Sequence record: MN158212.1
Direction: 5' to 3' (one strand)
Length of the DNA: 44,592 nucleotides
Source: Escherichia phage BEK1-1
Made by a program: the position numbers and the translations under genes. Of this stretch, positions 1,187-40,725 are shown in pieces. Every line of letters starts with the position of its first letter. Position 1 is the first letter of the stretch. The notes under the pieces were generated by a model. That model made no database searches, was not told the origin of the DNA, and worked only from the letters and a program-made list of their open reading frames with translations.

Positions 1187-1262
1187 ATTTAACCTCGTTC
1201 GTCGTTGATGGGGGTAATCATACTCCACCTTTTAATTTTTTATTTAGCAATTTGTGCTATTT
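1187..1262 (-). promoter_or_regulatory. box promoter (AAATAGCACAAATTGCTAAA, 20 nt, TATGAT, leader ACCCCCATC...) upstream of the annealase gene
   Basis: Direct reading of the reverse complement; same architecture as the other copies. Confidence 0.5.
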
Positions 1263-2424: not shown

Positions 2425-2823
2425 TTACTCCTTAACCTTAACTACTTTAACAGACTTCAAATCTTCTTCAGTGAAGTATCCGCTCAGTACATCCCTAGCT
2501 TCCTCTTTAGTCTCGAATCTGTCAGCCTCGCTCTTATTCGTGGTGTATCCAGCTGGGCCACCAAAATAGCAGTCGCCGAACAGTGCGTTGTTTTTCTCTT
2601 TGATAATGTAGTAGGTCATTTCTGCATCTCTCTGGTTGTTTGCTTTGGATGAGGTAACTATATATTCGCAAGTACAGCCAGTCCAATTGGTTTCGCCAAT
2701 CGTTGATTCAAACTTACGCGTGAATATTTGTAATTCTGTGTAGGCATTGGCACTAGTTACGTTTCTTGGCATCTCATCCCAGATATAGCTCAATGTAACC
2801 ATCGTGTATATCGTGTATATCAT
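2425..2823 (-). CDS. hypothetical protein (132 aa; start uncertain)
   Basis: First gene leftward of divergent control region A; no recognisable motif. Confidence 0.35.
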   Translation of the reverse strand: MIYTIYTMVTLSYIWDEMPRNVTSANAYTELQIFTRKFESTIGETNWTGCTCEYIVTSSKANNQRDAEMTYYIIKEKNNALFGDCYFGGPAGYTTNKSEADRFETKEEARDVLSGYFTEEDLKSVKVVKVKE

Positions 2824-2927
2824 TTATTGCTGATGGTGCATTGGTATAGCTGCCGTGCAATACTGTATAAATCCACATGATACTAAAATTATAACCGGAA
2901 CACTCCAGAACAGTAGTTACATGATAT

Positions 2928-2985
2928 ACACAGTAATATATATAATAATAATAATAATATTAAAAGGTTGATATATATAGATATT
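2928..2985. repeat. AT-rich element copy 1: ACACAGTA-(ATA)n-TAAAAGGTTGATATATATAGATATT
   Basis: Near-identical copy at about 29732..29797 with a different number of ATA units; core TATCAACCTTTTA (minus strand) fits the IHF consensus WATCAANNNNTTR. Confidence 0.7.
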
Positions 2986-3104
2986 TTAATGTAACTATTG
3001 CGTAAATTGGCGTAACAGAGCGTATATCATTTTTCGCGGATGGGATTGCATACATCGAGTTACATCGGTTACGTGTAACTGTGATTTGTGGTGAAATTGG
3101 CGAT

Positions 3105-3150
3105 AAATAGCACTAATTGCTAAAGACAACTGACTATCTTTAGGTATATT
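3105..3150 (+). promoter_or_regulatory. box promoter (AAATAGCACTAATTGCTAAA, 20 nt, TATATT) upstream of the Rha-like gene
   Basis: Direct reading. Confidence 0.5.
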
Positions 3151-3222
3151 TAGGCGCATGGCGGCAATGGTGTTGTCTGATCTACCGATTTTCGGTAGAC
3201 ATAAATAACTGGAGAGAATGAA

Positions 3223-3870
3223 ATGAACATTGAAGTGTGCAAAGAACAATCAAAAACCATGATGAGCACAAAGGAAATCGCAGAGTTAACCGGCAAACGT
3301 CATGATCACGTCGTTCGCGACACAAAGGAAATGATCAATGAATTGTTACATTATAACGATGCCCCAGATTTGGGTCATGATGATTATCAACTACTTACAG
3401 ACAATCGAGGCTATACATCTGAGATTTTACTCAACAAGGAACTAACCGAAACGCTAATCACTGGCTACAGTGTCGTACTTCGCCACAAAGTAATCCGCAG
3501 GCTTCATGAACTTGAGGCTTTAGTTAAAAAACAAGCGGAAGTAATCAGCCAGATGGTAAGCATTGATGAGCTTAAAGAGGTTCGAATGATGCTTGGTGTG
3601 GCTAATGCGCAGAATGCACACCTGAGCCAGCGCATTGTTGCAGAGCAAAGAATAAATGAGATCTTACTCATGGATAAGAGTACCGATGAAAAACTAGACA
3701 TGCTGGCTTGTGAGGCTCGCCAGTGTTGGGTTAGTCGATCTGATGAGATGGAGGAAAGATTTAAGTATGAAGCCCAATGCTTCGCCCTTAAAGAAAAGAA
3801 TGATGCGCTGACCGGATTGATTGAGAATAATCTCGGCATTGACATCAAGCTGCTGCTGGAAAAGAAATAG
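3223..3870 (+). CDS. Rha-family phage regulatory protein (antirepressor-like)
   Basis: N-terminal ...STKEIAELTGKRHDHVVRDTKEM... resembles the Rha signature; C-terminal half coiled-coil-like; RBS GGAGAG. Confidence 0.5.
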   Translation: MNIEVCKEQSKTMMSTKEIAELTGKRHDHVVRDTKEMINELLHYNDAPDLGHDDYQLLTDNRGYTSEILLNKELTETLITGYSVVLRHKVIRRLHELEALVKKQAEVISQMVSIDELKEVRMMLGVANAQNAHLSQRIVAEQRINEILLMDKSTDEKLDMLACEARQCWVSRSDEMEERFKYEAQCFALKEKNDALTGLIENNLGIDIKLLLEKK

Positions 3871-3910
3871 CACTAATTGCTAAACACTGATCGCAAGGAT
3901 GCGATACTAT
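3865..3910 (+). promoter_or_regulatory. box promoter (AAATAGCACTAATTGCTAAA, 20 nt, TACTAT, leader ACTCCATCGAAACGAAA) upstream of cor
   Basis: Direct reading; the box overlaps the stop codon TAG of the preceding gene. Confidence 0.55.
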
Positions 3911-3945
3911 TACTCCATCGAAACGAAATTACTAAGGAATACAAA

Positions 3946-4176
3946 ATGAATAACTTCATCAAATCAGCAATCATCGCAGCAGCAGTAATCATGGCAGTTG
4001 GTTGTTCTTCTGGTCCTCGTCCTGATGGTTGGTGTGCAACGTCCTCAAACGGGGTGTGCGTAGCTAAGTGGAAAGGCGGTGTAGTTGTTCCTGCTGGTGA
4101 AATTGACATTCGATACGATGGAATTAAAGGCTCCAGTGGCTCCGTTCGTGATTATGGCTCTAAGGAGTGGAATTAA
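3946..4176 (+). CDS. cor: Cor-like superinfection-exclusion outer-membrane lipoprotein
   Basis: Internal ATG of track ORF 3877..4176; [22 protein letters not shown] = signal peptide plus lipobox; about 76 aa; position next to the tail-tip genes as in T1/phi80-type phages. Confidence 0.65.
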
Positions 4177-5111
4177 TGGCCCAAGGTATATACATAGATC
4201 TTAATGATGGAAGGAATCCAATGACAATTACCGCAGGGATGCGAGCCTTGAACTTTGCTGGAAACTTCAACGTTTCTAGTGGTGGATTTAGTAAGACGTT
4301 CTCAATCCAGGGAAATGAAGGGGCCTCAAGGTTCCTTATCCCTAACAATGGCGCTTATTCATTCGAGCTTGATAGGGGTGTTGAAATTTATTACATAAAT
4401 GGATTTTCATCAACGGCGTCAAGCGGGACTATATCAATTGGTTATGAGAATGGTTATTCTGACCGTATAACTCAATTCTCTGGTACTGTTGTTGAGGTGC
4501 TAAGGGCATCGACTGGACAAGGTATTTATGTTGCGAATAGTACTGATTTTACTTCGATAACCACCACTGACAGGTTGTTGGTGTGCAAGTTTGCCCAGAG
4601 GATATCTTTCACCAACACATACACACTTCCAATTTATGGGATACCATTTGGAAAGTGGAGCAACCCAGGCGTTTCAGTTGAATACAACGGTAGCAACCAA
4701 CTGATATGTACAAACATAAATACTGAAGATACTGGTGACACACCAGGAAGTGTCACTATGGATTTGATTATCTTCCAGATGGTCGCTCCAACCCCTGGTC
4801 CTGGACTTAACATATTTAATTCAAATGGTGCTTGTACGCTATCGACCGTAACTAGGCCATTGGTTGTTTCTGGATTCATAAATCTATCAGGTAGCAACCA
4901 GTACATTGGCGAATCTTACTTCCCAATACTCAGATGTGGATTTAACACAAGGGCAATACGAGCATATAAGGAGTTAAGAAACAAAGGAATTGTAATGAGC
5001 AATGGGTATGTTAGATCTGGCACGGGCTCAAGGATTGTCAGATACGAGATAGGAAATAGGCCTGACGTAACAATATCAACGCCACTTCCTTACCTTCCTG
5101 ATATGTATTAA
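4176..5111 (+). CDS. hypothetical Gly/Ser/Thr/Asn-rich protein (311 aa), possible fibre-like or exclusion protein
   Basis: ATG overlaps the cor stop (TAATG) with AAGGAG RBS; no signal peptide; ends at a bidirectional terminator. Confidence 0.4.
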   Translation: MAQGIYIDLNDGRNPMTITAGMRALNFAGNFNVSSGGFSKTFSIQGNEGASRFLIPNNGAYSFELDRGVEIYYINGFSSTASSGTISIGYENGYSDRITQFSGTVVEVLRASTGQGIYVANSTDFTSITTTDRLLVCKFAQRISFTNTYTLPIYGIPFGKWSNPGVSVEYNGSNQLICTNINTEDTGDTPGSVTMDLIIFQMVAPTPGPGLNIFNSNGACTLSTVTRPLVVSGFINLSGSNQYIGESYFPILRCGFNTRAIRAYKELRNKGIVMSNGYVRSGTGSRIVRYEIGNRPDVTISTPLPYLPDMY

Positions 5112-5115
5112 ATAT

Positions 5116-5141
5116 AAAGCCCCTTTCGGGGCTTTTGTTTT
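5116..5141. terminator. bidirectional intrinsic terminator between convergent genes
   Basis: GCCCC-TTTC-GGGGC with T-runs on both strands. Confidence 0.7.
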
Positions 5142-8100
5142 AGAAAGTACCTACTACAACTCTCCCTCCTCCAGGCAAGTTAACCGTGATTCCGTTTCCG
5201 TTAATCTGTACCGTATTGTTTGTTCCGTTAAAGGCGAATTCACCACTGTTGGCGTACAGTTTGCCGCGAATCTCAGCGTTACCAGACTTATCAATCCTCC
5301 ATCCTGTGCTTCCTGCCACGTAGTTGCTGGACTGAATAAAGTCACCAATCTTCGCGTTAGTAATTGAGCCATCTCCGATTACTGCGCTTTGGATGATTAC
5401 GTTTCCGTTCTCTACAACGAAGGGTAGTTGCCATTGACCGGAGCCAGAACCAATGCCATTACTGATTGCGAATCTGTTTGCGTCAAAAATAAACTGACTG
5501 CGAACATTATCACCAGTGCCAACTAGCTCCATGCTCATGCCGGATGAATAAGTCTGACCATTGTATTTCAGGCCAAGACTAATTCCGTACTGTACACCAG
5601 TTGACGTGGCATTAGAGAAAGCGTCTAACTTCTGGTTTAGAGCCGCCTCGTTTTCGCCAAGTCTTGCTGATAGAGCCGTGTCTGCTGTAGTCCTTGCTTC
5701 TGTCTCTGTGGCTAATGCAGTCTTAACTTCAGTAATCGATGCTACAACTTCATCATCTATCTGCGCTTTAAGGGCCGTTAGAGCCTCTACGCGTGCCTGA
5801 GTTTCATCGGCTATGAGATTCACCGCCTGAACATATTCAGCCTTACGTTTGCCGTTCTCCTTAGTCATGCGACGAACATCAGTGTCATTAGCCAATGCGT
5901 TCTCAAGAATTGACTCTGCCTGATTCTGAATATCCTGATTCTTTTGAATCGCATTCTGCTCCAGGTATTTGAATCCTTCAGAACCCTCAATATCAACCTT
6001 GATGTAATCATTGATAATGTTAGCGTCGTCAGTACTCATGCCTCTAGCAAAATAAGACCAATCAGAGGTATTTCCGATTCTGTCAATCAATCTTGCGCGA
6101 TACCAGATGACCTTACCTGGCTGAATTGGCGTATGCCAGTACTCATAGGCTGGATAAGGTAGTAAAGTCAGCGAGCTTGCGTTATCTGGATTGTAAGTAC
6201 CATCGCCATTATCAGGAACCTGCTGAAGCTCAGTGTAAGCAGTATCACCAGAGCCTTCAGGGAAACCCCACTTAACACGAATGCCGAATACCTCATCTGT
6301 TGATGCCGTGATAACAGTAGGCGCAGATGGGCGACCAATCTTGCCAGTTAGCGATACCGTTACAATGTCAGACCAGGAAGACACGTTTTCAGTATCTGAT
6401 ACGCTGCGAACCCTAACGTCATAGATTCCTGCGTAAATACCTTCGATATCAACCTCTGTGCTAGCTGTTCTGGGTACGTTAATCCAGTTGCCATTCTCTT
6501 TTCTCCACTGAACATTGTAGGTTTTAGCGTATGGAGCTTTATCCCATCCGATAACCATCGTCTCAACCGACAAGCCCTGAACAACCTTGCTATAACTTGA
6601 CACGGTCAAGTTTTCTGGTGGCGACAATCTGTCAGGCTCTACGATTGAAGTCGGGCGGTCAACAATGTTTACGCCATAATCAATCTCGTCATACTTGTTA
6701 GGGTCGTACTCCACTGCTGTAATCGTATACTGGAATGAATCCGATCCATCAGAATCTGCTTTTTGAATCCCGGTCACAACATATTGCTGAAGAGCAAGAT
6801 TGTCCTTATCAATTGCGAACACAGTATCAGGTTGAGCTACAAAGCTAAAAGCAGTATTCAGGTTGATGGTTCTACCGTCTTCCGAAATGCTGGCAATAGT
6901 TCTCGCTTCAGGGCTTCCGTCGGGTTTGTTCAGAAGAATTCTGTCACCTGGAGCTGCGTCAACTTTAAACTGGGTAAAAACCTGCAATCCCTGAACTGAT
7001 TCAATACGACCGGAAAGGTTTAACTGATAGTTACTAGACCATGCCGCGTCATTAACCGCAATGACCTCTCCAATCATCGGAATCATGCCCTCCAACCCAG
7101 TGGTGAAGCTGATAGTTTCGCTTCTCAGGTTGGTTTTCAGGAGCCATCTGCCGCGTCTGTTTGCTTCACTTCTCCGCGTACATCCAATTGCCGTAAGGTC
7201 GACTGGATTAAATCCGAATCTGCGAGTAGCTTCCAGTTCAAATACCGGCTCAACATCCTGCTGATAGTTGTTCTCCACATCATCAAACTGAACGTTCGCC
7301 GTAGTGTAAAGGCTCTTATCACTGGCAAAGGTGCGACTGAACAATCCGTTTACAACGTTATCATTCGTGAAGATGTAAGATGGGTTGCGAGGCTTATCAA
7401 CCACTATACCAATCTTTTCGCCATCATAGAAAGTCAGGCCACGGAAGATTGAGCAGATATCACGAATTAGCGTGTAGGCCTCAACCTTATTCTGTACAAC
7501 CATATCGCACAGGTAGCGCGGCTCCATTCCACCTTTTCCATCAGGAACCATCTGGTCGCAGAATTGCGCAGCCTCGTAAAGACCCCACTTATCAATCTCC
7601 ACGCCCAACTCTCGTTGATCAAGGCCATAGCGACGGTTTGTCACTAAGTCATAAAGAACCCAAGCTGGGTTATTTGACCATGCCATTTTGAACAGTCCAT
7701 TCCATGTTCCGCTGTAAGTTCTTGCTTCCGGGTCGTAGTTGGTTGGGACCTGAATCAGCTTCCAGCGCTTCTTGATAGAGATTGTCGGTATTCCGTTAGG
7801 GAAAAGGTCAGATCCAAACTCAACATAAACCAGAGCCGTAAGCGGATAGCGGAATTTAGCGTCAATTACTTCCTGATAGGTTGTAATCTGCATCCCGTTA
7901 ACCAATGTGCTACTTGTTGAATCCGCTGTAATCTTTCGGATGCGAACCAATGCGCTATCAAATTCAGCCGGAAGGTTCACTCGAATGCTGCGGTCGTAAC
8001 CTGTAGTTGTCTTTCCGTTGGCAACTCCTCGAGTATATTCCTGATAAGCGCCACCATTAACAGAAAGATCAATCGCATACTCGCAGGTTGTTCCGTTCAG

Positions 8101-8511
8101 GTCTCCATTGCTTTCTTGCTTAACCAGTCTAGGCCAATATAGCTTTACACGAATCGCTGATAGCTGAGTATTGTTAACCGCAATGATGTACGGGGTATCG
8201 TTTTTGATTTCCCTGGAGACCTGAACCTCTGAGTTTGCACCATCAAGGCCAGAGATATAGTCCTGATACTGCGTTCCAGGGCGAAACTCAGCCCGAACAC
8301 CTTCGTAGTTGTAGCTACCATCCTGGTTTTGCACCGGAACGTCAGCAAGGTATAAATCCTTCATTGAGAAGTTAGGGTCAACCTCACCATCAGCAACCGC
8401 CAAAAGAACCTTAACCTTGTTAAGTGAAATAAGGTTGTCTTCCTGCTCCACTGGTTGATGCGGCTTCTGACTACCACCCTTAGCACCATAAATCTTAATA
8501 TCTTCAGCCAT
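5140..8511 (-). CDS. tail tip / host-specificity protein (lambda gpJ-like)
   Basis: Track ORF 5140..8550, about 1120 aa from internal ATG (MAEDIKIYGAKGG...) with GAGG RBS; size and position after the I/K/L/M homologues. Confidence 0.8.
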   Translation of the reverse strand: MAEDIKIYGAKGGSQKPHQPVEQEDNLISLNKVKVLLAVADGEVDPNFSMKDLYLADVPVQNQDGSYNYEGVRAEFRPGTQYQDYISGLDGANSEVQVSREIKNDTPYIIAVNNTQLSAIRVKLYWPRLVKQESNGDLNGTTCEYAIDLSVNGGAYQEYTRGVANGKTTTGYDRSIRVNLPAEFDSALVRIRKITADSTSSTLVNGMQITTYQEVIDAKFRYPLTALVYVEFGSDLFPNGIPTISIKKRWKLIQVPTNYDPEARTYSGTWNGLFKMAWSNNPAWVLYDLVTNRRYGLDQRELGVEIDKWGLYEAAQFCDQMVPDGKGGMEPRYLCDMVVQNKVEAYTLIRDICSIFRGLTFYDGEKIGIVVDKPRNPSYIFTNDNVVNGLFSRTFASDKSLYTTANVQFDDVENNYQQDVEPVFELEATRRFGFNPVDLTAIGCTRRSEANRRGRWLLKTNLRSETISFTTGLEGMIPMIGEVIAVNDAAWSSNYQLNLSGRIESVQGLQVFTQFKVDAAPGDRILLNKPDGSPEARTIASISEDGRTINLNTAFSFVAQPDTVFAIDKDNLALQQYVVTGIQKADSDGSDSFQYTITAVEYDPNKYDEIDYGVNIVDRPTSIVEPDRLSPPENLTVSSYSKVVQGLSVETMVIGWDKAPYAKTYNVQWRKENGNWINVPRTASTEVDIEGIYAGIYDVRVRSVSDTENVSSWSDIVTVSLTGKIGRPSAPTVITASTDEVFGIRVKWGFPEGSGDTAYTELQQVPDNGDGTYNPDNASSLTLLPYPAYEYWHTPIQPGKVIWYRARLIDRIGNTSDWSYFARGMSTDDANIINDYIKVDIEGSEGFKYLEQNAIQKNQDIQNQAESILENALANDTDVRRMTKENGKRKAEYVQAVNLIADETQARVEALTALKAQIDDEVVASITEVKTALATETEARTTADTALSARLGENEAALNQKLDAFSNATSTGVQYGISLGLKYNGQTYSSGMSMELVGTGDNVRSQFIFDANRFAISNGIGSGSGQWQLPFVVENGNVIIQSAVIGDGSITNAKIGDFIQSSNYVAGSTGWRIDKSGNAEIRGKLYANSGEFAFNGTNNTVQINGNGITVNLPGGGRVVVGTF

Positions 8512-8557
8512 ATCACAAAGCCTCATGTTTGTTTTGATCATTTGTGCCATTCTACAC

Positions 8558-8584
8558 TAAATAAAAAACCCGCACTAGGCGGGT
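8558..8584 (-). terminator. intrinsic terminator-like hairpin between the I-like and J-like genes
   Basis: Minus strand ACCCGC-CTAGT-GCGGGT followed by TTTTTTATTT. Confidence 0.5.
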
Positions 8585-8591
8585 ATGATAT

Positions 8592-9164
8592 TTAAGCATT
8601 GTCTTCGGCGTAGCTGCCTGCCGAAAATACCGAACCGCCAACCGTTCGATACCCATAAGGAAGACAAACTGGATATCCAGCAGCAACCGTGTTTACGGCT
8701 GAGCCAAATGCGTAAGAGGCCCTGTTACTTGTTTGGTTGCTCTGGGTCTTTAATCCAGTCGCTTGCGGCGAGAGTAATTGAGCAATACCGCCAGCAGCCA
8801 GAGAAACACCAGCACCAACAAGATAAATCTGCCCGGTAAAGATGCCAATCGTGATAAGAGCGGCGCCTAAAATAGTCTGAAACAAGCCGCCAGACTTACG
8901 ACCTAGTGGGATTGGCAAGATGCGTATCTCCTGAACGGCACTAAAATCAGCAATCCTATGCTCGTTCACATTTTTACCATCTACAAATACAGCGTATCTT
9001 GTGTTCTGACCGACATGGCTATTCATGAACTCCTTGAAAGCAGGAATCTGTGAGCAAAGCGCTCGCATAGCCTCTGGCACACTACTTACTGCCATTTGGT
9101 GAATCTTGCCAAACTTACGGCCTAGAGATAGGCCTAACTTAATATCAATCAGTTTCTGGGTCAT
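8592..9164 (-). CDS. tail assembly protein (lambda gpI-like)
   Basis: 190 aa; Gly/Ala-rich hydrophobic C-terminal half; position between K-like and J-like genes. Confidence 0.6.
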   Translation of the reverse strand: MTQKLIDIKLGLSLGRKFGKIHQMAVSSVPEAMRALCSQIPAFKEFMNSHVGQNTRYAVFVDGKNVNEHRIADFSAVQEIRILPIPLGRKSGGLFQTILGAALITIGIFTGQIYLVGAGVSLAAGGIAQLLSPQATGLKTQSNQTSNRASYAFGSAVNTVAAGYPVCLPYGYRTVGGSVFSAGSYAEDNA

Positions 9165-9903
9165 AAATTACATCCTCTGGTAAATCTGTGTGGCGAACGA
9201 TTCGAACTGTGCGCTCTCGCCAGTAATCGGAGTAGATATCAACGGAACTCATTTTACCATAAAGGTGATGAATGAACCTGTTGTTGCCAATGTAGATTCC
9301 TGCGTGGTTTGTCACCTCGCTTTGCACCTGCATCATAATCATCGAGCCAATAGGAATATCTGAAGTTTTTACCAGCTCAAATCCTTCCTTAATCCAGTTG
9401 TCGTCATAGATATTTTCATTGTACCGTTTCTCCCACCACGGGTAATTAACGCGGTAGTCATTCAGTTTGACGCCGCATTTCTTGTGAAATTCCATGACCA
9501 AGCCCCAGCAATCAAAGCTACCAAGACTCCACGGGCGCCCAATCAGTGGCATAGATGATGGCTCAAGAGTCCGCACATCTCCCTCTGGGATGCTTACAAT
9601 AACATAAGGAATCTCGCATTCATTGCAGCTACAGATATCCGCTGGGCTGGGTCTTGTTGTGGCTCCATCACCCGTATGGGAGTGAACTACGTAAACAATT
9701 GACTCATTGTCAGCTAAGCTAAATGCGATACCAGAATACTCATTTGAATCAAGGATAAACTCATTTTCCGGGTCCTTACTGGCGTTTGTGATTTTGTGAT
9801 ACTTCTGCGCCCTACCTTTCTGGGTAACAACCCCACAGCACTCATGCGGGTAAACTTCTTTTGCGTGCTGGAATATCTCAAGTTTAACTTTTGGTGTTAA
9901 CAT
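9145..9903 (-). CDS. tail assembly protein (lambda gpK-like; MPN/JAMM plus NlpC/P60 domains)
   Basis: HECCG...HSHTGDGATTRPSPAD (JAMM-like E...HxH...S..D) and FDCWGL...H (NlpC/P60-like Cys/His). Confidence 0.75.
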   Translation of the reverse strand: MLTPKVKLEIFQHAKEVYPHECCGVVTQKGRAQKYHKITNASKDPENEFILDSNEYSGIAFSLADNESIVYVVHSHTGDGATTRPSPADICSCNECEIPYVIVSIPEGDVRTLEPSSMPLIGRPWSLGSFDCWGLVMEFHKKCGVKLNDYRVNYPWWEKRYNENIYDDNWIKEGFELVKTSDIPIGSMIMMQVQSEVTNHAGIYIGNNRFIHHLYGKMSSVDIYSDYWRERTVRIVRHTDLPEDVIYDPETD

Positions 9904-9916
9904 TAATAAATCCTCT

Positions 9917-10672
9917 TTAACTCTGATTTGCTTTAGCCTGAAGGCTTGCTGCAGCGCAGCCGCCGAAATCTAACTGATTATTCTCACCAAATCTAAGTTT
10001 GCAACTGTTAACAGTTCCTGCACAGAAGTCTAATGAAGGATCCGCCACTGGCTCATCATCCTTATTAAAGTATCTATTTCCAGCATAAGTACACCCATTA
10101 CCGCTACGATACCAACCCCTTGAGGCGAAATAGCAAACAGACTGAACAAGTCTAGCAGGGATGTAAATGCCATCCATATCCATCGGGCTACTTAGTTCAA
10201 ACGAAGCCGTCTTGTAATCAACCTGCTTTGGTCGCTCAATGAAGTAAACGAATCTGCGATAGTCCCCATCAGCAATGCTTCCATCTTCATTGATGTTGTC
10301 TCGCGTAGTAATCCAGATAGTAACCTTAGCCTTAACCAATCCGTTGTATGTGCGAATCAATGCACTGATACGCTGGTCTACGTTTGATACTGTTAGCGTC
10401 ACTTTGTTGGCTTTGCCGTCAGATGTCATATTGATGCCAGAGATACCAAAAGGTCTAGGACCGTACTCTTCACCGCGAAATGTAATTGTCTTTTCTGGTA
10501 GTGGCTCGCCATTCATTTGGGCCAGCATGATTTCCTCTGGCGTGTATGAAATGTTCTCATTGTGGAAGTTGTAAACGAGACTTCCGAAGGAGGTTCCGTC
10601 AACCTGGATTAGTGTCACAATCTCGCCAGGGAAAAGGCTTTGCAACTGATTTTCAAACTTTGGACTTAGCAT
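9917..10672 (-). CDS. minor tail protein (lambda gpL-like)
   Basis: Track ORF 9917..10684 (non-ATG first codon); start moved to ATG (MLSPKF...) after GGAG; C-terminal Cys cluster C..C......C...C as in gpL. Confidence 0.7.
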   Translation of the reverse strand: MLSPKFENQLQSLFPGEIVTLIQVDGTSFGSLVYNFHNENISYTPEEIMLAQMNGEPLPEKTITFRGEEYGPRPFGISGINMTSDGKANKVTLTVSNVDQRISALIRTYNGLVKAKVTIWITTRDNINEDGSIADGDYRRFVYFIERPKQVDYKTASFELSSPMDMDGIYIPARLVQSVCYFASRGWYRSGNGCTYAGNRYFNKDDEPVADPSLDFCAGTVNSCKLRFGENNQLDFGGCAAASLQAKANQS

Positions 10673-10683
10673 ATATTTCTCCA

Positions 10684-10708
10684 ATAAAAAAGCCCCTCAC
10701 AGGGGCTT
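10684..10708 (-). terminator. terminator-like hairpin between the M-like and L-like genes
   Basis: Minus strand AAGCCCC-TGTGA-GGGGCTT followed by TTTTTTATT. Confidence 0.5.
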
Positions 10709-10711
10709 AGT

Positions 10712-11062
10712 TTAACGCATTGAACTAAATACTTCTACGAATTGCATGCTTACAGTTTGAATATCCTTGTTGAGCGGAGTTACGCTAATGCTATCCTGCT
10801 GGATAACAAACATGGATGTGTCACCTTGCGGCGTTGTCCAGAAGAAAGGGGTAATGATGTGGTTGAAGCAGAAATCCATCACATCTCGCCAGTCCTTGTT
10901 GGTGTAGGTCATCTGGTAGCTTCTAGTATTACTACGATACCCCCCCGTTCCCCGTTGGGAATAGCCATTACCAAAGCTAACAATTCGCACGTTGTTCGTA
11001 TTGCTGAATGATGCTGATCCATTTTGTATCTGAGTGCACCAGTTAAATGTATCAATAGCCAT
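10712..11062 (-). CDS. minor tail protein (lambda gpM-like)
   Basis: Start at internal ATG (MAIDTFNW...) after TAAGGA; position between tape measure and L-like gene. Confidence 0.55.
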   Translation of the reverse strand: MAIDTFNWCTQIQNGSASFSNTNNVRIVSFGNGYSQRGTGGYRSNTRSYQMTYTNKDWRDVMDFCFNHIITPFFWTTPQGDTSMFVIQQDSISVTPLNKDIQTVSMQFVEVFSSMR

Positions 11063-11092
11063 AAAAATCCTTAGGGGCCGAAGCCCCACTAA

Positions 11093-14074
11093 TTAGTTAA
11101 ATCCGCGCAGGTAAGCATAAGCACGGCCGCCTTGCTGGAAGGACTGAGCAATCTCTTCCGCTACGATAGCCTTGACGCCGCTCTGCAACGCTTTGGCTTG
11201 CTCTGGGTCGCTACCCACCCCTGAGTTTACGTTAACAGTAATGCCGCTAACATTAACATCAGTTCCACCAGAAACCAAACCTCCATTTGCATAACCAGAA
11301 GGACCACCAACAACACCGCCATTCGCATAACCCTTCATCAGCGCGTATAGGTTCTTAACACCAATTCGGCTTGTCGCTTCTTTTGTGAATACAAACTCGC
11401 CACGGTGTACCGTTCCTGCTGGTTGGTATTTCCCACCATTGCCGGTGTAACCACCATTAGCAAATCCACCACCAACCGCGGATGCGATAGAACCAATAGC
11501 GCCGCCAGTGCCTCCGAAGCTACTCAAGCTAGACTCGATAGCCTTGACAACAAGAAGCTGGGTTGCAATCTTTGCTATCTGCTTCAGGATGCTAACAGTA
11601 AACTCCCTGAAGTTTGTTTCTCCAGTCGTTACAAGGTTGGTAATCTGGTCGGTAATACCTTCGAAGACTGTTGTGGTTAAACTTCCAGCTATTGAAAATG
11701 CATCCGTCGCACTCTCAGCCCAATTGGTAAAGGATTGATTCACGCCAGCAAGCCAGTTTTCACGTAGCGCATCTTCCTGAGCATAAAAGTTACGTCTTGC
11801 CTCCAGTAGTTGCGTGAAATCAACGTCATCAAGTGCTCCTCCAGCATTAACCTGATTGGACTGAAGAGCTTGAATCTCTCTTGCCCTCTGCTGCTCACGA
11901 GAAGACAGGCCAGCCCCCAAATTAATATTGCTTGCCTCATTGTTAATCTGAAGAATCTTCTTGCGGTTATCTTCAGCTAACTTATTAGCTCGCTCCTGCA
12001 AAACAACCTGGTCACCTAGTTCAGCCTTCTGCCTTGCGAGTGCAAGAACTTTATCCTTTTCAATGAGAAGCCTTGCTTGCTCTTTGGTGATTGAGCCATC
12101 AAGTTGCCTCTGCTCAAGAATCCTGAACTTAGCCTCCTCCTGAAGGTACTGCTTGCGCTCATTACTTATTACTGCTCCAATATCCCTGTTTTCCTGAAGT
12201 ACCTTTAGTTGAGCCTGAAGTGCCAGCACGCCAGATTCGTAACAAATTGTAAGGTCTCTTTGCTCTTTAGCCCTACCATTTTCTTCTTTCCTACTCTTCT
12301 TGATCGCATCAAGTTCATCCTGAAGCGCCTTCTTCCTTTTTGCAAACTCCTCATCAGCACCTGACTGCTCATTGGAATTCTGATTTTCCCTGCGTGTAAC
12401 GTAACCAAGTTCTCCTTCTCTGATTCTGGCATCTCTCTCCCTGATAGACTTCTCTAGCTCAAGGTTTTGCTTCTTGGCGGCATCGATAATCTTCTGCTGA
12501 CTCTTGATTACATCATCACCGACACCATCAAGGCCTGGGATATTCTGCAATGCCTGAGTTGCACTAATTACAAACTCACCAATCAGCGCGTCACCTTGGT
12601 TAATGAAGACCTTAATCTGTTCAATTGTCCCGGCTATTACATCAACAAACAGGTTTAGCGCCCCAACCGTTCTGCGACTAATTGCATCCCATACATCAGA
12701 TATGTACTTCCTGAAGTCATTCCAGGCCAATTCAAGAGGAGTAAGCTGGGCTGCAATATCGTTAAGGTTTGCTTCCTGTGATTTGCTAAATATATCAATA
12801 GCAGCAGTTACGGCTTCAACCTCACCCCTAGTCTCTCTCAATCTTTCAATTGTTGTTAACTGCCCCTGTGTAAGGAAGTTAAACCTCTTGTCTAAATCAG
12901 CAAGTCCTTGAATTGGGTCGCTCGCAATCTGGTTATAGTAACCAGTAATTTCCTTTGCATCCTTACCTGTCAACTGCGCCCATCTGGCGGTAGATTTAGT
13001 AATCTTGTCAATCTGCGTCAGCGTAAGGTTCCCTTGCTCAATAAGGCTTGTTGCGATGCTAGTCACAAGTCCTCTGGTTGCACCAGTAGCATCAGAAACA
13101 GAGCTAACCAACTCTCTAACCTGCGAGATTGATGCGATTGTGGAGTTGTTTGAGAACGCAATGGCAGAATTTAATGCTCTGAATTCACTCTCTGCCTGGG
13201 CAGCACCGATACCTAGAGCAACAAGCGCGCCACCCAAAACCCCAACAGCAACATTGAATGGATTTAAGGCTGCAAGCGCGAATCTAAAGGTGTTACCAAT
13301 ACCTCCAAATGCATCCTTAATTTGTCCGCCTTGCTGAATTGCAATAAGCCAAATCGGAATGCCGCCAGCAAGTGATGTCCCAATATCTGTAATCTGCGCT
13401 GGCAATTGAGAGATTGCAGCCTTGTATTGACCTGCGCTTAATCCTGATTTCTGAAAAGCCTTACTCTGAGCAATTAGCTGGGTGTTTGCCTTCTGTGATG
13501 CATCGGCGATTCTGTCAATGATGGGTGCAGCCTGGGAGCTAACTCCAAGCTGGGCCGCTTGTAACTTTAGGTACTCCTCTCTCGTCAATGTCGCCGCCTG
13601 AGCCTGACGCTCAAGTGATGCGATAAATCTATCCGCTTCAGCCTTTGCTTTTGCTTTATCCTTTGCAGCCTGTGCTGCCGATCTCCCCTCTTCAGTTAGC
13701 GCCGCACGTGAACGAGCAAGTTTTGCGTTCTGCGTTTCAAGGGCTTCACCTAAGCGGAAAAACTCCTCATCAGGAACTAATCCAGCCGCGAAAGCCTTAT
13801 CAAGACCTACAGCAGCCTCTTGCAGCTTTCGGAACTTTGCCGCAGTTGGATCAATAGCTGTTTGCAATTTAGCTAAAGATGCTTGCTGTTCAGCCAGTGC
13901 GCGAGCGGTATCTCTAGCCTGGTTTTTAGCTACCTGTTCAGCGTTGACGAACTCACTAATACCGGAAGCAGCCTGCTGGTTTGCCTGTCTGAACTTTTGT
14001 AGGGATTGCGTTCCCCTGTCTACCTGCGAGACGTCTACGGCTAGTGTGATTCCGGCTAATTCATTTGTTGCCAT
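11093..14074 (-). CDS. tail tape measure protein
   Basis: 993 aa; long Ala/Gln/Glu/Lys-rich coiled-coil regions; Gly-rich C-terminus; follows the G/GT chaperone. Confidence 0.85.
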   Translation of the reverse strand: MATNELAGITLAVDVSQVDRGTQSLQKFRQANQQAASGISEFVNAEQVAKNQARDTARALAEQQASLAKLQTAIDPTAAKFRKLQEAAVGLDKAFAAGLVPDEEFFRLGEALETQNAKLARSRAALTEEGRSAAQAAKDKAKAKAEADRFIASLERQAQAATLTREEYLKLQAAQLGVSSQAAPIIDRIADASQKANTQLIAQSKAFQKSGLSAGQYKAAISQLPAQITDIGTSLAGGIPIWLIAIQQGGQIKDAFGGIGNTFRFALAALNPFNVAVGVLGGALVALGIGAAQAESEFRALNSAIAFSNNSTIASISQVRELVSSVSDATGATRGLVTSIATSLIEQGNLTLTQIDKITKSTARWAQLTGKDAKEITGYYNQIASDPIQGLADLDKRFNFLTQGQLTTIERLRETRGEVEAVTAAIDIFSKSQEANLNDIAAQLTPLELAWNDFRKYISDVWDAISRRTVGALNLFVDVIAGTIEQIKVFINQGDALIGEFVISATQALQNIPGLDGVGDDVIKSQQKIIDAAKKQNLELEKSIRERDARIREGELGYVTRRENQNSNEQSGADEEFAKRKKALQDELDAIKKSRKEENGRAKEQRDLTICYESGVLALQAQLKVLQENRDIGAVISNERKQYLQEEAKFRILEQRQLDGSITKEQARLLIEKDKVLALARQKAELGDQVVLQERANKLAEDNRKKILQINNEASNINLGAGLSSREQQRAREIQALQSNQVNAGGALDDVDFTQLLEARRNFYAQEDALRENWLAGVNQSFTNWAESATDAFSIAGSLTTTVFEGITDQITNLVTTGETNFREFTVSILKQIAKIATQLLVVKAIESSLSSFGGTGGAIGSIASAVGGGFANGGYTGNGGKYQPAGTVHRGEFVFTKEATSRIGVKNLYALMKGYANGGVVGGPSGYANGGLVSGGTDVNVSGITVNVNSGVGSDPEQAKALQSGVKAIVAEEIAQSFQQGGRAYAYLRGFN

Positions 14075-25919: not shown

Positions 25920-25965
25920 ATTATATGCCATCCATGGCGACTGCGTTTAGCAATTCGTGCTATTT
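25920..25965 (-). promoter_or_regulatory. box promoter (AAATAGCACGAATTGCTAAA, 20 nt, TATAAT)
   Basis: Direct reading of the reverse complement. Confidence 0.55.
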
Positions 25966-28105: not shown

Positions 28106-28363
28106 TCATTGCCTCTCCGCCTCTTCCGCCGCAAGGATTAATGCCGCCGCCAGCTTGCGTGCTTGCTCAGGACTGTATTGCATAATCGTCTGACAATCTC
28201 CGCATTCATCCGGGTCGAAATCCAGACATACAACGGGACCTCGATCTCTTTTTGTAATGCTTATCTCAGCTTGGTCTAAGTAAAGATCTTCAATACGAAC
28301 AGCTTCCATATTCATTTCCTCTTTGTTTTCGATTGGGTAATCATAGCTAACTACCCGATCCAT
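28106..28363 (-). CDS. hypothetical acidic protein (85 aa)
   Basis: ORF with box promoter immediately upstream. Confidence 0.4.
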   Translation of the reverse strand: MDRVVSYDYPIENKEEMNMEAVRIEDLYLDQAEISITKRDRGPVVCLDFDPDECGDCQTIMQYSPEQARKLAAALILAAEEAERQ

Positions 28364-28385
28364 TGTTTAGCAATTCGTGCTATTC
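28340..28385 (-). promoter_or_regulatory. box promoter (AATAGCACGAATTGCTAAA, 20 nt, TATGAT, leader ACCCAATCGAAAACA)
   Basis: Direct reading; the box overlaps the TAG stop of the upstream gene. Confidence 0.55.
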
Positions 28386-30584: not shown

Positions 30585-30745
30585 TGCTGCTGCCATCTGA
30601 GATAAATTATTTCGATCTTGAAGTCATAAGCGCATACAGCTGGAAGGGTTGGCCTTGCGGGGACTGGTTTCGCGAAGACTTACTTGAGAGTCATGAAATT
30701 ATGCTCAAGGCCATAGAAAAAGCACGAAATAGCACTAATTGCTAA
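30584..30745 (+). CDS. hypothetical protein (53 aa)
   Basis: ATG overlaps the upstream stop (TGATG); 3' end AAT AGC ACT AAT TGC TAA coincides with the box. Confidence 0.35.
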   Translation: MLLPSEINYFDLEVISAYSWKGWPCGDWFREDLLESHEIMLKAIEKARNSTNC

Positions 30746-30772
30746 ACACTGATCGCAAGGATGCGGTATTAT
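30727..30772 (+). promoter_or_regulatory. box promoter (AAATAGCACTAATTGCTAAA, 20 nt, TATTAT)
   Basis: Box and spacer nearly identical to the cor promoter (CACTGATCGCAAGGATGCG). Confidence 0.5.
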
Positions 30773-37662: not shown

Positions 37663-37696
37663 TCTTTAAAATCGTCTTTAGCAATTCGTGCTATTT
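37651..37696 (-). promoter_or_regulatory. box promoter (AAATAGCACGAATTGCTAAA, 20 nt, TATAGT, leader ACTCCATCGAAACGAAA)
   Basis: Direct reading of the reverse complement. Confidence 0.55.
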
Positions 37697-40202: not shown

Positions 40203-40688
40203 ATGAATGCAGTCGACAAGCGAACCATTAACGGTAATAACGGAACCATCCGCACTGAAGACAAAAAGCAACGGAAACGACCTTCAGGTTACTACGTTTT
40301 GAAAGATGAGGTAAGGGCGGGTTTACGTGCGCGGCTGGAAATTGTTCTTGATTTCTTCGGCACAAAGGCAAATATGGCAAAGCAATTAAAGGTAACACCA
40401 CAGGCTGTAGAGGAATGGTTTAAGCGCGGCATGATTTCTGCGCGCGGGGCTCAACTCTCACACAACTACTACAAGCGAACCGGGGAAGGCTTTCGCGCCA
40501 CATTCTGCCGACCAGATCTGCAATTCGACGGCAACGGCAAGCCTCTTACTCTACGTTGCAAAAAGCGTCACATGCTGCGTGTTGTTACTGAGGCTGAATT
40601 AGCCACCAAGCCAGAGTGTCGATCATGGCGCAAGATTAAGGAAGAGAATCGCAAAAAGCGAGAAGCAGAGAAAAATAGCACGAATTGA
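40203..40688 (+). CDS. putative HTH DNA-binding regulator (161 aa)
   Basis: ...FGTKANMAKQLKVTPQAVEEWFKRGMIS... resembles a Cro/CI-type helix-turn-helix; basic N- and C-termini. Confidence 0.45.
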   Translation: MNAVDKRTINGNNGTIRTEDKKQRKRPSGYYVLKDEVRAGLRARLEIVLDFFGTKANMAKQLKVTPQAVEEWFKRGMISARGAQLSHNYYKRTGEGFRATFCRPDLQFDGNGKPLTLRCKKRHMLRVVTEAELATKPECRSWRKIKEENRKKREAEKNSTN

Positions 40689-40725
40689 TAAACAATGGCG
40701 CTATGCATTGTGTATAGTGCCTTTA
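40673..40725 (+). promoter_or_regulatory. box promoter (AAATAGCACGAATTGATAAA, 20 nt, TATAGT) upstream of the second HNH gene
   Basis: The box overlaps the last codons (NSTN-stop) of the HTH gene. Confidence 0.5.

Follow-up and report, generated by a model that had tools for sequence, protein, structure and literature searches.

In the genome of Escherichia phage BEK1-1 (MN158212.1; the whole stretch of 44,592 nucleotides that was analysed is called the window here), a small lipoprotein gene and a gene for a protein of 311 residues very probably make up the host-recognition cassette of an Rtp-like phage of the Drexlerviridae that uses LptD(E) as its terminal receptor. The 311-residue product is the main receptor-binding protein (RBP) of the LptD-specific family; the earlier note on this DNA had offered it as a possible receptor-binding accessory, of which the receptor binding stands and the accessory role does not. 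The window belongs to the Drexlerviridae, subfamily Braunvirinae, as does phage Rtp. The cassette region has 93.5% DNA identity to the Veterinaerplatzvirus isolates vB_EcoS-12210I and relatives, and some 25 kb of the remaining window is roughly 91% identical to the same isolates.

Organization and expression signals of the locus

The features of the locus, in the order in which they occur in the window, are as follows.

3868..3914, plus strand: putative phage-specific promoter-like element, consisting of the inverted repeat TAGCACTAATTGCTA and AAACAC, then a -10-like GATACT/TACTAT about 20-22 nt downstream; directly 5' of the lipoprotein gene
3946..4176, plus strand: putative superinfection-exclusion lipoprotein gene, Rtp45 homologue, 76 aa
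4176..5111, plus strand: receptor-binding protein gene, Rtp44 / RBP-Oeko family, DUF6453, 311 aa
5116..5135, no strand assigned: bidirectional intrinsic terminator, AAAGCCCC-TTTC-GGGGCTTT, common to the exclusion/RBP operon and the convergent J gene
5140..8550, minus strand: J-like central tail fibre / tail-tip gene, 1136 aa, 97% identity to Rtp43
5140..5262, minus strand: last 40 J codons and stop, the C-terminal tip that co-varies with the RBP type; likely RBP docking site

The lipoprotein ORF opens with the ATG at 3946, which is preceded by AAGGA at a distance of about 8 nt, and ends in a TAA at 4174-4176, the last A of which is also the first base of the ATG (4176-4178) of the 311-residue ORF. 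This 1-nt overlap (TAATG), together with a strong AAGGAG at 4162-4167 ahead of the second start, bears out the translational coupling that had been proposed from the sequence. Pfam E-values of 1e-35 and 2e-119, respectively, indicate that both ORFs are real genes, and the recurrence of the same gene pair in the same arrangement in several phages and a prophage argues against chance ORFs. The hairpin at 5116-5135 has 8 bp, five of the eight pairs being GC, with T-runs on both sides, and it scores as a terminator on both strands. It starts five bases past the RBP stop (5111), and the J stop (5140) lies four bases beyond it, such that the two stop codons are 28 nt apart with the terminator between them. 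The convergence of both genes on the J-like gene and the common bidirectional terminator, as described earlier, were thus confirmed.

Upstream, a Rha/anti-repressor-like gene (3223-3870) lies directly 5' of the cassette, leaving a gap of 75 nt to the lipoprotein gene. A generic sigma-70 scan from 3871 to 3945 gave no convincing promoter. The gap holds the element TAGCACTAATTGCTAAACAC, which occurs eight times in the window; the 20-mer TAGCACNAATTGCTAAANAC has 8 copies there vs 0.01 expected. All eight copies of the element are intergenic and point at a downstream start codon, with a TATAAT-like hexamer ~20-22 nt later, and the element is kept 5' of the lipoprotein gene in BEK6 and 12210I. We infer from this pattern that the repeated element may serve as a promoter. 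Since the genes for the Erf-like recombinase and the Rha-like protein also have copies ahead of them, the exclusion/RBP pair probably has a promoter of its own, of a class common to non-structural genes and outside the tail operon. The lipoprotein and RBP genes would then form a single transcription unit, with their own promoter-like element, translational coupling and a terminator common with J. The palindrome ATCGCAAGGATGCGAT was considered as an operator or hairpin and rejected; it is better seen as the spacer of a pair of promoter-like element copies that closely resemble each other.

The 311-residue protein belongs to the LptD-specific RBP family

The partner of the lipoprotein had been described as an unrecognised protein of beta-rich, fibre-like composition with no signal peptide. 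The protein indeed has no signal peptide, transmembrane or hydrophobic segment (the maximal 19-residue Kyte-Doolittle mean is 1.15), it is beta-rich, and its content of Gly, Ser and Thr is 30.5%, vs 22.4% in J; its fold, a compact beta-sandwich monomer, does not fit the term fibre-like. Nor is it unrecognised: genetic work tied its family to LptD in 2021 (PMC8594841), and a structure on LptDE followed in 2025 (PMC12685063). Its score with PF20051 (DUF6453) is 398.5 bits, the cut-off being 25, with residues 4-291 on positions 1-290 of the 291 in the profile, and the protein falls into PHROG 1265; NCBIfam has no model for either this protein or the lipoprotein. Its identity is 97-98% to the BEK phage proteins, 88% to that of HK578, 80% to AugustePiccard bas01_0028 (at 100% coverage) and 79%, in a gapless alignment, to Rtp44, and it falls to 34.7% and 37.7% for the proteins of FritzHoffmann and VogelGryff. 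When compared with all PDB sequences by phmmer, its sole match was chain C of 9RPT/9RPW/9RQI (E 6.5e-41), with residues 1-311 aligned to 1-321.

Structure prediction, which the earlier note had suggested as a check, led to the same family. The AlphaFold2 model, for which the alignment comprised 25 homologues with identities from 33% to 97%, is all-beta, with a mean pLDDT of 85.7 and a pTM of 0.86, and in a Foldseek search of the PDB its only significant match was 9RPT_C (E 1e-16, probability 1.00, TM (target) 0.87), the next having an E of 0.05. The invariant residues in the alignment of 25 sequences form four clusters: the N-terminus (M1, G4, D11-G12, M16, I18-T19, G21), NSTDF at ~121-125, PFxxW at 157-161, and a C-terminal tyrosine. 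Confidence in the model is lowest at the NSTDF stretch (pLDDT <60 for residues 111-130), and the tail-proximal part of the LptDE-bound RBP is likewise poorly ordered (Dunbar et al., PMC12685063). We infer that the invariant residues form the tail-attachment surface.

The database labels of this family tell a different story. PHROG 1265 is placed in the category 'moron... membrane protein', and the homologues carry the RefSeq label 'membrane protein'. A reading of the 311-residue protein as a membrane protein was rejected on the basis of its hydropathy and its fold.

It could still be argued that the 311-residue protein is not a virion component but a second superinfection-exclusion or host-takeover factor, acting in or on the membrane of the infected cell. 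Its gene is co-transcribed and translationally coupled with that of the exclusion lipoprotein, the operon bears the promoter-like element of recombination-type genes outside the tail operon, and the labels just given would agree with such a role. The absence of any signal peptide or transmembrane segment speaks against it, as does the fact that the gene always adjoins J, the C-terminus of which co-varies with the 311-residue protein, and that the alleles at this locus predict receptor use across families. We consider this explanation extremely unlikely, and the suggestion of a second exclusion factor in the earlier note found no support. By homology, the 311-residue protein would essentially be a known virion component. 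A further thought follows from the production of the RBP from a message coupled to the lipoprotein, under the promoter-like element of recombination-type genes: RBP made in excess and left unassembled might, on release at lysis or at an earlier stage, plug open LptD on debris and neighbouring cells. If so, besides serving in the virion, the RBP would be a second, extracellular factor for exclusion or host manipulation, for which we see only a slim chance.

The lipoprotein is a member of the Rtp45 family

The small gene had been read as encoding a signal peptide and the lipobox AVGC, and this was confirmed by the hydrophobic N-terminus, the lipobox A-V-G-C ending in Cys20, and the Ser (not Asp) at +2; two more cysteines follow, Cys30 and Cys38. 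The protein scores 121.6 bits with PF24052, 'Phage lipoprotein family', for which the cut-off is 27, and it is 84% identical to Rtp45, rising to 89% (51/57) in the mature part, with Cys20, Cys30 and Cys38 all kept. Its only match in the PDB is chain D of 9RPS, which is Rtp45 on LptDE (E 1e-41, residues 1-76). In the cryo-EM structure of Rtp45-LptDE(M), LptD is contacted from the periplasm by the lipoprotein, which lies between LptE and LptM (PMC12685063). In bound Rtp45, Cys30 and Cys38 form a disulfide and a hairpin reaches up into the barrel lumen, and the lipoprotein shifts extracellular loop 4 of LptD by up to 20 Å, into a conformation that cannot accept the RBP (PMC12685063). The authors' term for this is superinfection exclusion by steric displacement, which they set against the allostery by which T5 Llp acts on FhuA (PMC12685063). 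The part of the text of PMC12685063 that was available to us contains no plating assay of phage exclusion by Rtp45; the exclusion role of Rtp45-type lipoproteins is suggested by the structure of the complex and by analogy with T5 Llp.

The lipoprotein had previously been called Cor-like, and here the role and the homology need to be separated. Like the window lipoprotein, Cor of T1, phi80, N15 and HK022 is a small outer-membrane lipoprotein encoded beside the J region, and it blocks the phage's own receptor; the receptor-blocking part of the description stands. However, the receptor in those phages is FhuA, and the mature part of Cor has no detectable homology to the window lipoprotein. In BLASTP against T1 Cor, only the region of the signal peptide and lipobox aligned, with 20 bits; on PF24052, T1 Cor reaches 17.7 bits and so falls short of the cut-off of 27; and hhalign of a profile of the mature Rtp45 family, built from 5 sequences (window, Rtp, Shfl1, JL1 and an E. 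coli prophage), against mature T1 Cor gave a probability of 0.35%. Membership of the lipoprotein in the Cor family was rejected on these three grounds. The T1 locus is also built differently, with the N15 gp22/gp23-like genes ST32 and ST31 following J on the J strand and cor on the other strand; it has no DUF6453 gene, as neither ST32 nor ST31 matches. No genes of the T1/N15 gp22/gp23 type follow J in the window. The lipoprotein is therefore Cor-like in function only; its family is that of Rtp45, its predicted target is LptD rather than FhuA, and the mechanism predicted for it is different.

LptD as the predicted terminal receptor

Three independent studies, by Maffei et al., by Black et al. 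and in a preprint of 2026, tie this family to LptD. Maffei et al. (PMC8594841) found that phages with a DUF6453-type allele downstream of gpJ were all blocked by small in-frame deletions in lptD, and predicted that Rtp targets LptD. In the same study, the LptD dependence of AugustePiccard was shown by the genetics of resistant mutants (PMC8594841). OzMSK has the same dependence, with an RBP only 39% identical to Rtp44 (Black et al., PMC13035648), and the structure of the Oekolampad RBP on LptDE was solved in 2025 (Dunbar et al., PNAS, PMC12685063; PDB 9RPT). According to the 2026 preprint, which describes 1,050 genetic screens, four unrelated protein families encoded at this locus are each specific for one receptor, FhuA, BtuB, LptD or YncD, in a one-to-one relation (>30% identity, >99% coverage), and all tested members of the LptD family with >30% identity target LptD (10.64898/2026.04.02.716166). 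For the assignment of a receptor we used the rule given in the preprint, namely identity above 30%, with close to full coverage, to RBPs from phages with an LptD dependence proven by experiment (10.64898/2026.04.02.716166), which the 311-residue protein exceeds by a wide margin; the comparisons used were those with the AugustePiccard, FritzHoffmann and VogelGryff proteins given above and the full-length alignment with the Oekolampad RBP. With ~80% identity to a characterised RBP, BEK1-1 itself is predicted to depend on LptD.

It is conceivable that the protein is an RBP of this family while the terminal receptor of BEK1-1 is not LptD, or not LptD alone, if the ~20% divergence from Rtp44 and Bas01 lies in the loops that contact the receptor. 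The absolutely conserved residues of the RBP lie in the basal part of the protein rather than at its LptD-binding tip (Black et al., PMC13035648), which leaves room for such a change, and dual receptors are possible in the Braunvirinae, with AugustePiccard (Bas01) requiring NupG besides LptD through a segment of J, as reported in the preprint (10.64898/2026.04.02.716166). This reading nevertheless appears very unlikely to us, given that every tested family member above 30% identity targets LptD, that the cognate lipoprotein is 84% identical to the LptDE-binding Rtp45, and that J of the window is without the divergent segment and the 33-aa insertion of Bas01. Bas01 J differs from J of both the window and Rtp at about residues 895-985, where it has that insertion, and since both the segment and the insertion are absent from the window J, there is no reason to predict a NupG requirement for BEK1-1 from its sequence. 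As a general matter, the receptor needs of Braunvirinae can exceed the RBP alone, as AugustePiccard and NupG illustrate, and variable tip loops of the RBP could in principle alter its specificity.

The J tail tip and the conservation of the cassette

The product of the J gene has the Pfam domains FNIII-A_GpJ, Phage-tail_3 and Phage_Tail_Tip, belongs to PHROG 31 (central tail fiber J), and has a block-wise identity to Rtp43 of 95-100%. Comparing J proteins across phages, it can be seen that the C-terminal tip goes its own way. Shfl1 J is 95% identical to T1 J in the body and 28% in the last 40 aa, whereas against the window J the body has 61% identity and the last 40 aa have 82%. The last 40 aa of the window J are 98% identical to those of Rtp and 22% to those of T1, and J proteins from a Dhillonvirus, a Nonagvirus and the E. 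coli prophage, with 14-34% identity to the window J in the body, reach 42-58% in the last 40 residues. The motif NGNGITVNLPxGGxVVVG is common to the J proteins that adjoin DUF6453 genes. As the J tail tracks the type of RBP rather than the J body, it fits a docking adaptor for the RBP, a role that this co-variation suggests for the C-terminal ~40 residues. The same association between J tail and RBP, with the same interpretation, is given in preprint 10.64898/2026.04.02.716166, and our co-variation is a confirmation, not a new result.

The order lipoprotein to RBP, convergent on J, is found in the Braunvirinae Rtp, BEK6, 12210I and AugustePiccard, and also in Shfl1 (Tunavirinae), in JL1 (Dhillonvirus) and in a lambdoid E. 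coli prophage beside the abg genes. The 1-nt overlap between the two genes occurs in the window, Rtp, BEK6, Bas01 and the E. coli prophage; in Shfl1 and JL1, 2 nt separate them. Judged from these sequences, the cassette is a conserved, mobile unit which includes the end of J.

Comparison with known systems and proposed mechanism

The closest counterparts are rtp45-rtp44 of Rtp and bas01_0027/0028 of AugustePiccard, the LptD-specific RBP locus of the Braunvirinae, which match the window in gene order, 1-nt overlap and gene lengths (76 and 311 aa) and likewise converge on J. From Rtp, the window differs in about 20% of the RBP residues, the identities being 84% for the lipoprotein, 79% for the RBP and 97% for J, and in the Rha/anti-repressor-like gene, which lies directly 5' in the window, BEK6 and 12210I and is absent from that place in Rtp. 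From Bas01, it differs in the RBP (80% identity) and in the J segment ~895-985. The RBP and exclusion lipoprotein of Oekolampad (Bas18; PDB 9RPT, 9RPW, 9RQI and 9RPS; Dunbar et al., PNAS 2025) have the same family and fold as the window proteins, and the predicted mechanism is alike, with open LptDE being bound and exclusion working through displacement of extracellular loop 4 of LptD; the differences are the genus, Dhillonvirus, and a low identity of the RBP, Rtp44 and RBP-Oeko being 33% identical (PMC12685063). T5, with pb5 (oad) and Llp, follows the same logic of a dedicated monomeric RBP at the tip of the central fibre, with the receptor put out of reach by a small periplasmic lipoprotein of the outer membrane (PMC12685063). 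There, however, the proteins are unrelated and the receptor is FhuA, and Llp acts by long-range allostery where Rtp45 physically displaces loops (PMC12685063).

The binding modes proposed for the RBP and the lipoprotein of BEK1-1 are carried over from these published structures of homologues, and are set upon the homology, fold, gene arrangement and J-tail co-variation observed in this work. The RBP would be a monomeric double beta-sandwich, most likely held non-covalently by the last ~40 residues of J, and its loop-bearing tip would enter the extracellular mouth of the open LptD barrel, leading to commitment to DNA injection. In the infected cell, the 76-aa product would be exported, lipidated at Cys20 and, with Ser at +2, sorted to the inner leaflet of the outer membrane, where it would bind the periplasmic side of LptD between LptE and LptM. 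Its hairpin, reaching up the lumen, would displace extracellular loop 4, and RBP binding would be lost. With LptD blocked in this manner, the infected cell would be safe from superinfection and the progeny would be kept off debris. The lipoprotein is expected to exclude all phages that carry this LptD-type RBP.

Implications

The cassette is already known, having been predicted and described in 2021 and both modelled and solved by cryo-EM in 2025; our observation is real but ordinary, and RBPs 97-98% identical to the one described here are already in public collections. Its practical value is one of annotation. The public labels 'hypothetical protein', 'membrane protein' and 'moron' for the genes of this cassette are out of date, and for BEK1-1 a confident prediction of the terminal receptor can be made, namely the essential LPS exporter LptD. 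It follows from this prediction that the known loop deletions in lptD that block AugustePiccard, Oekolampad and OzMSK, among them delta Y658-Y678, should also block BEK1-1, and the lipoprotein should cross-exclude other LptD-dependent small siphoviruses.

A repeated promoter-like element

We found eight copies of a 20-nt element, TAGCACNAATTGCTAAANAC, in the window, where 0.01 would be expected. All eight are intergenic, each oriented toward the downstream gene, and each is followed ~20-22 nt 3' by a TATAAT-like hexamer.

Promoter-like elements and associated features of the window (the 20-nt copies are sequence matches)
1240-1259, minus strand, 20-nt element
3108-3127, plus strand, 20-nt element
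3223-3870, plus strand, Rha / anti-repressor-like gene (PF09669; PHROG 8235)
3868-3887, plus strand, 20-nt element
3890-3905, palindrome ATCGCAAGGATGCGAT in the spacer of a promoter-like element, first copy
25943-25962, minus strand, 20-nt element
28363-28382, minus strand, 20-nt element
30730-30749, plus strand, 20-nt element
30752-30767, palindrome ATCGCAAGGATGCGAT in the spacer of a promoter-like element, second copy, one mismatch
37674-37693, minus strand, 20-nt element
40676-40695, plus strand, 20-nt element

The element contains an inverted repeat, TAGCA-N5-TGCTA, and since the distance between its TTGCTA and the -10 is too great for a normal -35, the copies likely represent an activator- or regulator-dependent class of phage promoter. 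Two of them carry the 16-nt palindrome in the spacer and are nearly identical to each other over ~45 nt, which suggests either that they were duplicated recently or that a second operator is present.

The Rha / anti-repressor-like gene directly precedes the operon of the exclusion lipoprotein and receptor-binding protein (RBP) in this phage of a virulent family. BEK6, 12210I and AugustePiccard likewise carry such a gene, whereas Rtp has none at this place.

The tail-tip protein and annotation of the RBP family

The J protein of AugustePiccard, which additionally requires NupG, is almost identical to that of the window (gene at 5140-8550, minus strand) outside one divergent stretch in the coiled-coil part, at ~residues 895-985, which includes a 33-aa insertion. 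This stretch, lacking in the J of the window and of Rtp, is probably the NupG-specific segment of J reported in a 2026 preprint (10.64898/2026.04.02.716166).

For proteins of the DUF6453 family, to which the RBP belongs, RefSeq uses the label 'membrane protein', and PHROGs files them under 'moron, auxiliary metabolic gene and host takeover / membrane protein'; both labels are contradicted by hydropathy and by the solved structure. These coliphage genes are also matched by several 'Campylobacter phage' records (e.g. A121, D#), which may carry a wrong label or contain contaminating sequence.

Distribution of the cassette

In FritzHoffmann, an LptD-dependent Nonagvirus, the RBP gene is convergent on J, and only 116 nt (4385-4500) separate it from the upstream lateral tail fibre gene, so that a gene for the exclusion lipoprotein would not fit in its usual position. 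NJ01_031 of the Kuravirus podophage NJ01, annotated 'membrane protein', is a DUF6453 member (86.7 bits), and its sole relative in the PDB is 9RPT_C (E 6e-9), the RBP that binds LptD. Directly ahead of it, in the same orientation, lies an unannotated 344-aa ORF whose product contains a coiled coil and ends much like a J tip (...LRIRIGSW; the two genes occupy 2608-3642 and 3644-4678), and no lipoprotein gene was seen adjoining NJ01_031. This prompts the question of whether Gordonclarkvirinae podophages use LptD as a terminal receptor. The lipoprotein / DUF6453 / J cassette, as in the window, is found at 7783-12669 of an E. coli contig (GCA_015730745.1), at the edge of a lambdoid prophage adjoining the abg genes, with a 63% identical RBP. 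Thus, LptD-targeting cassettes circulate in temperate phages too.
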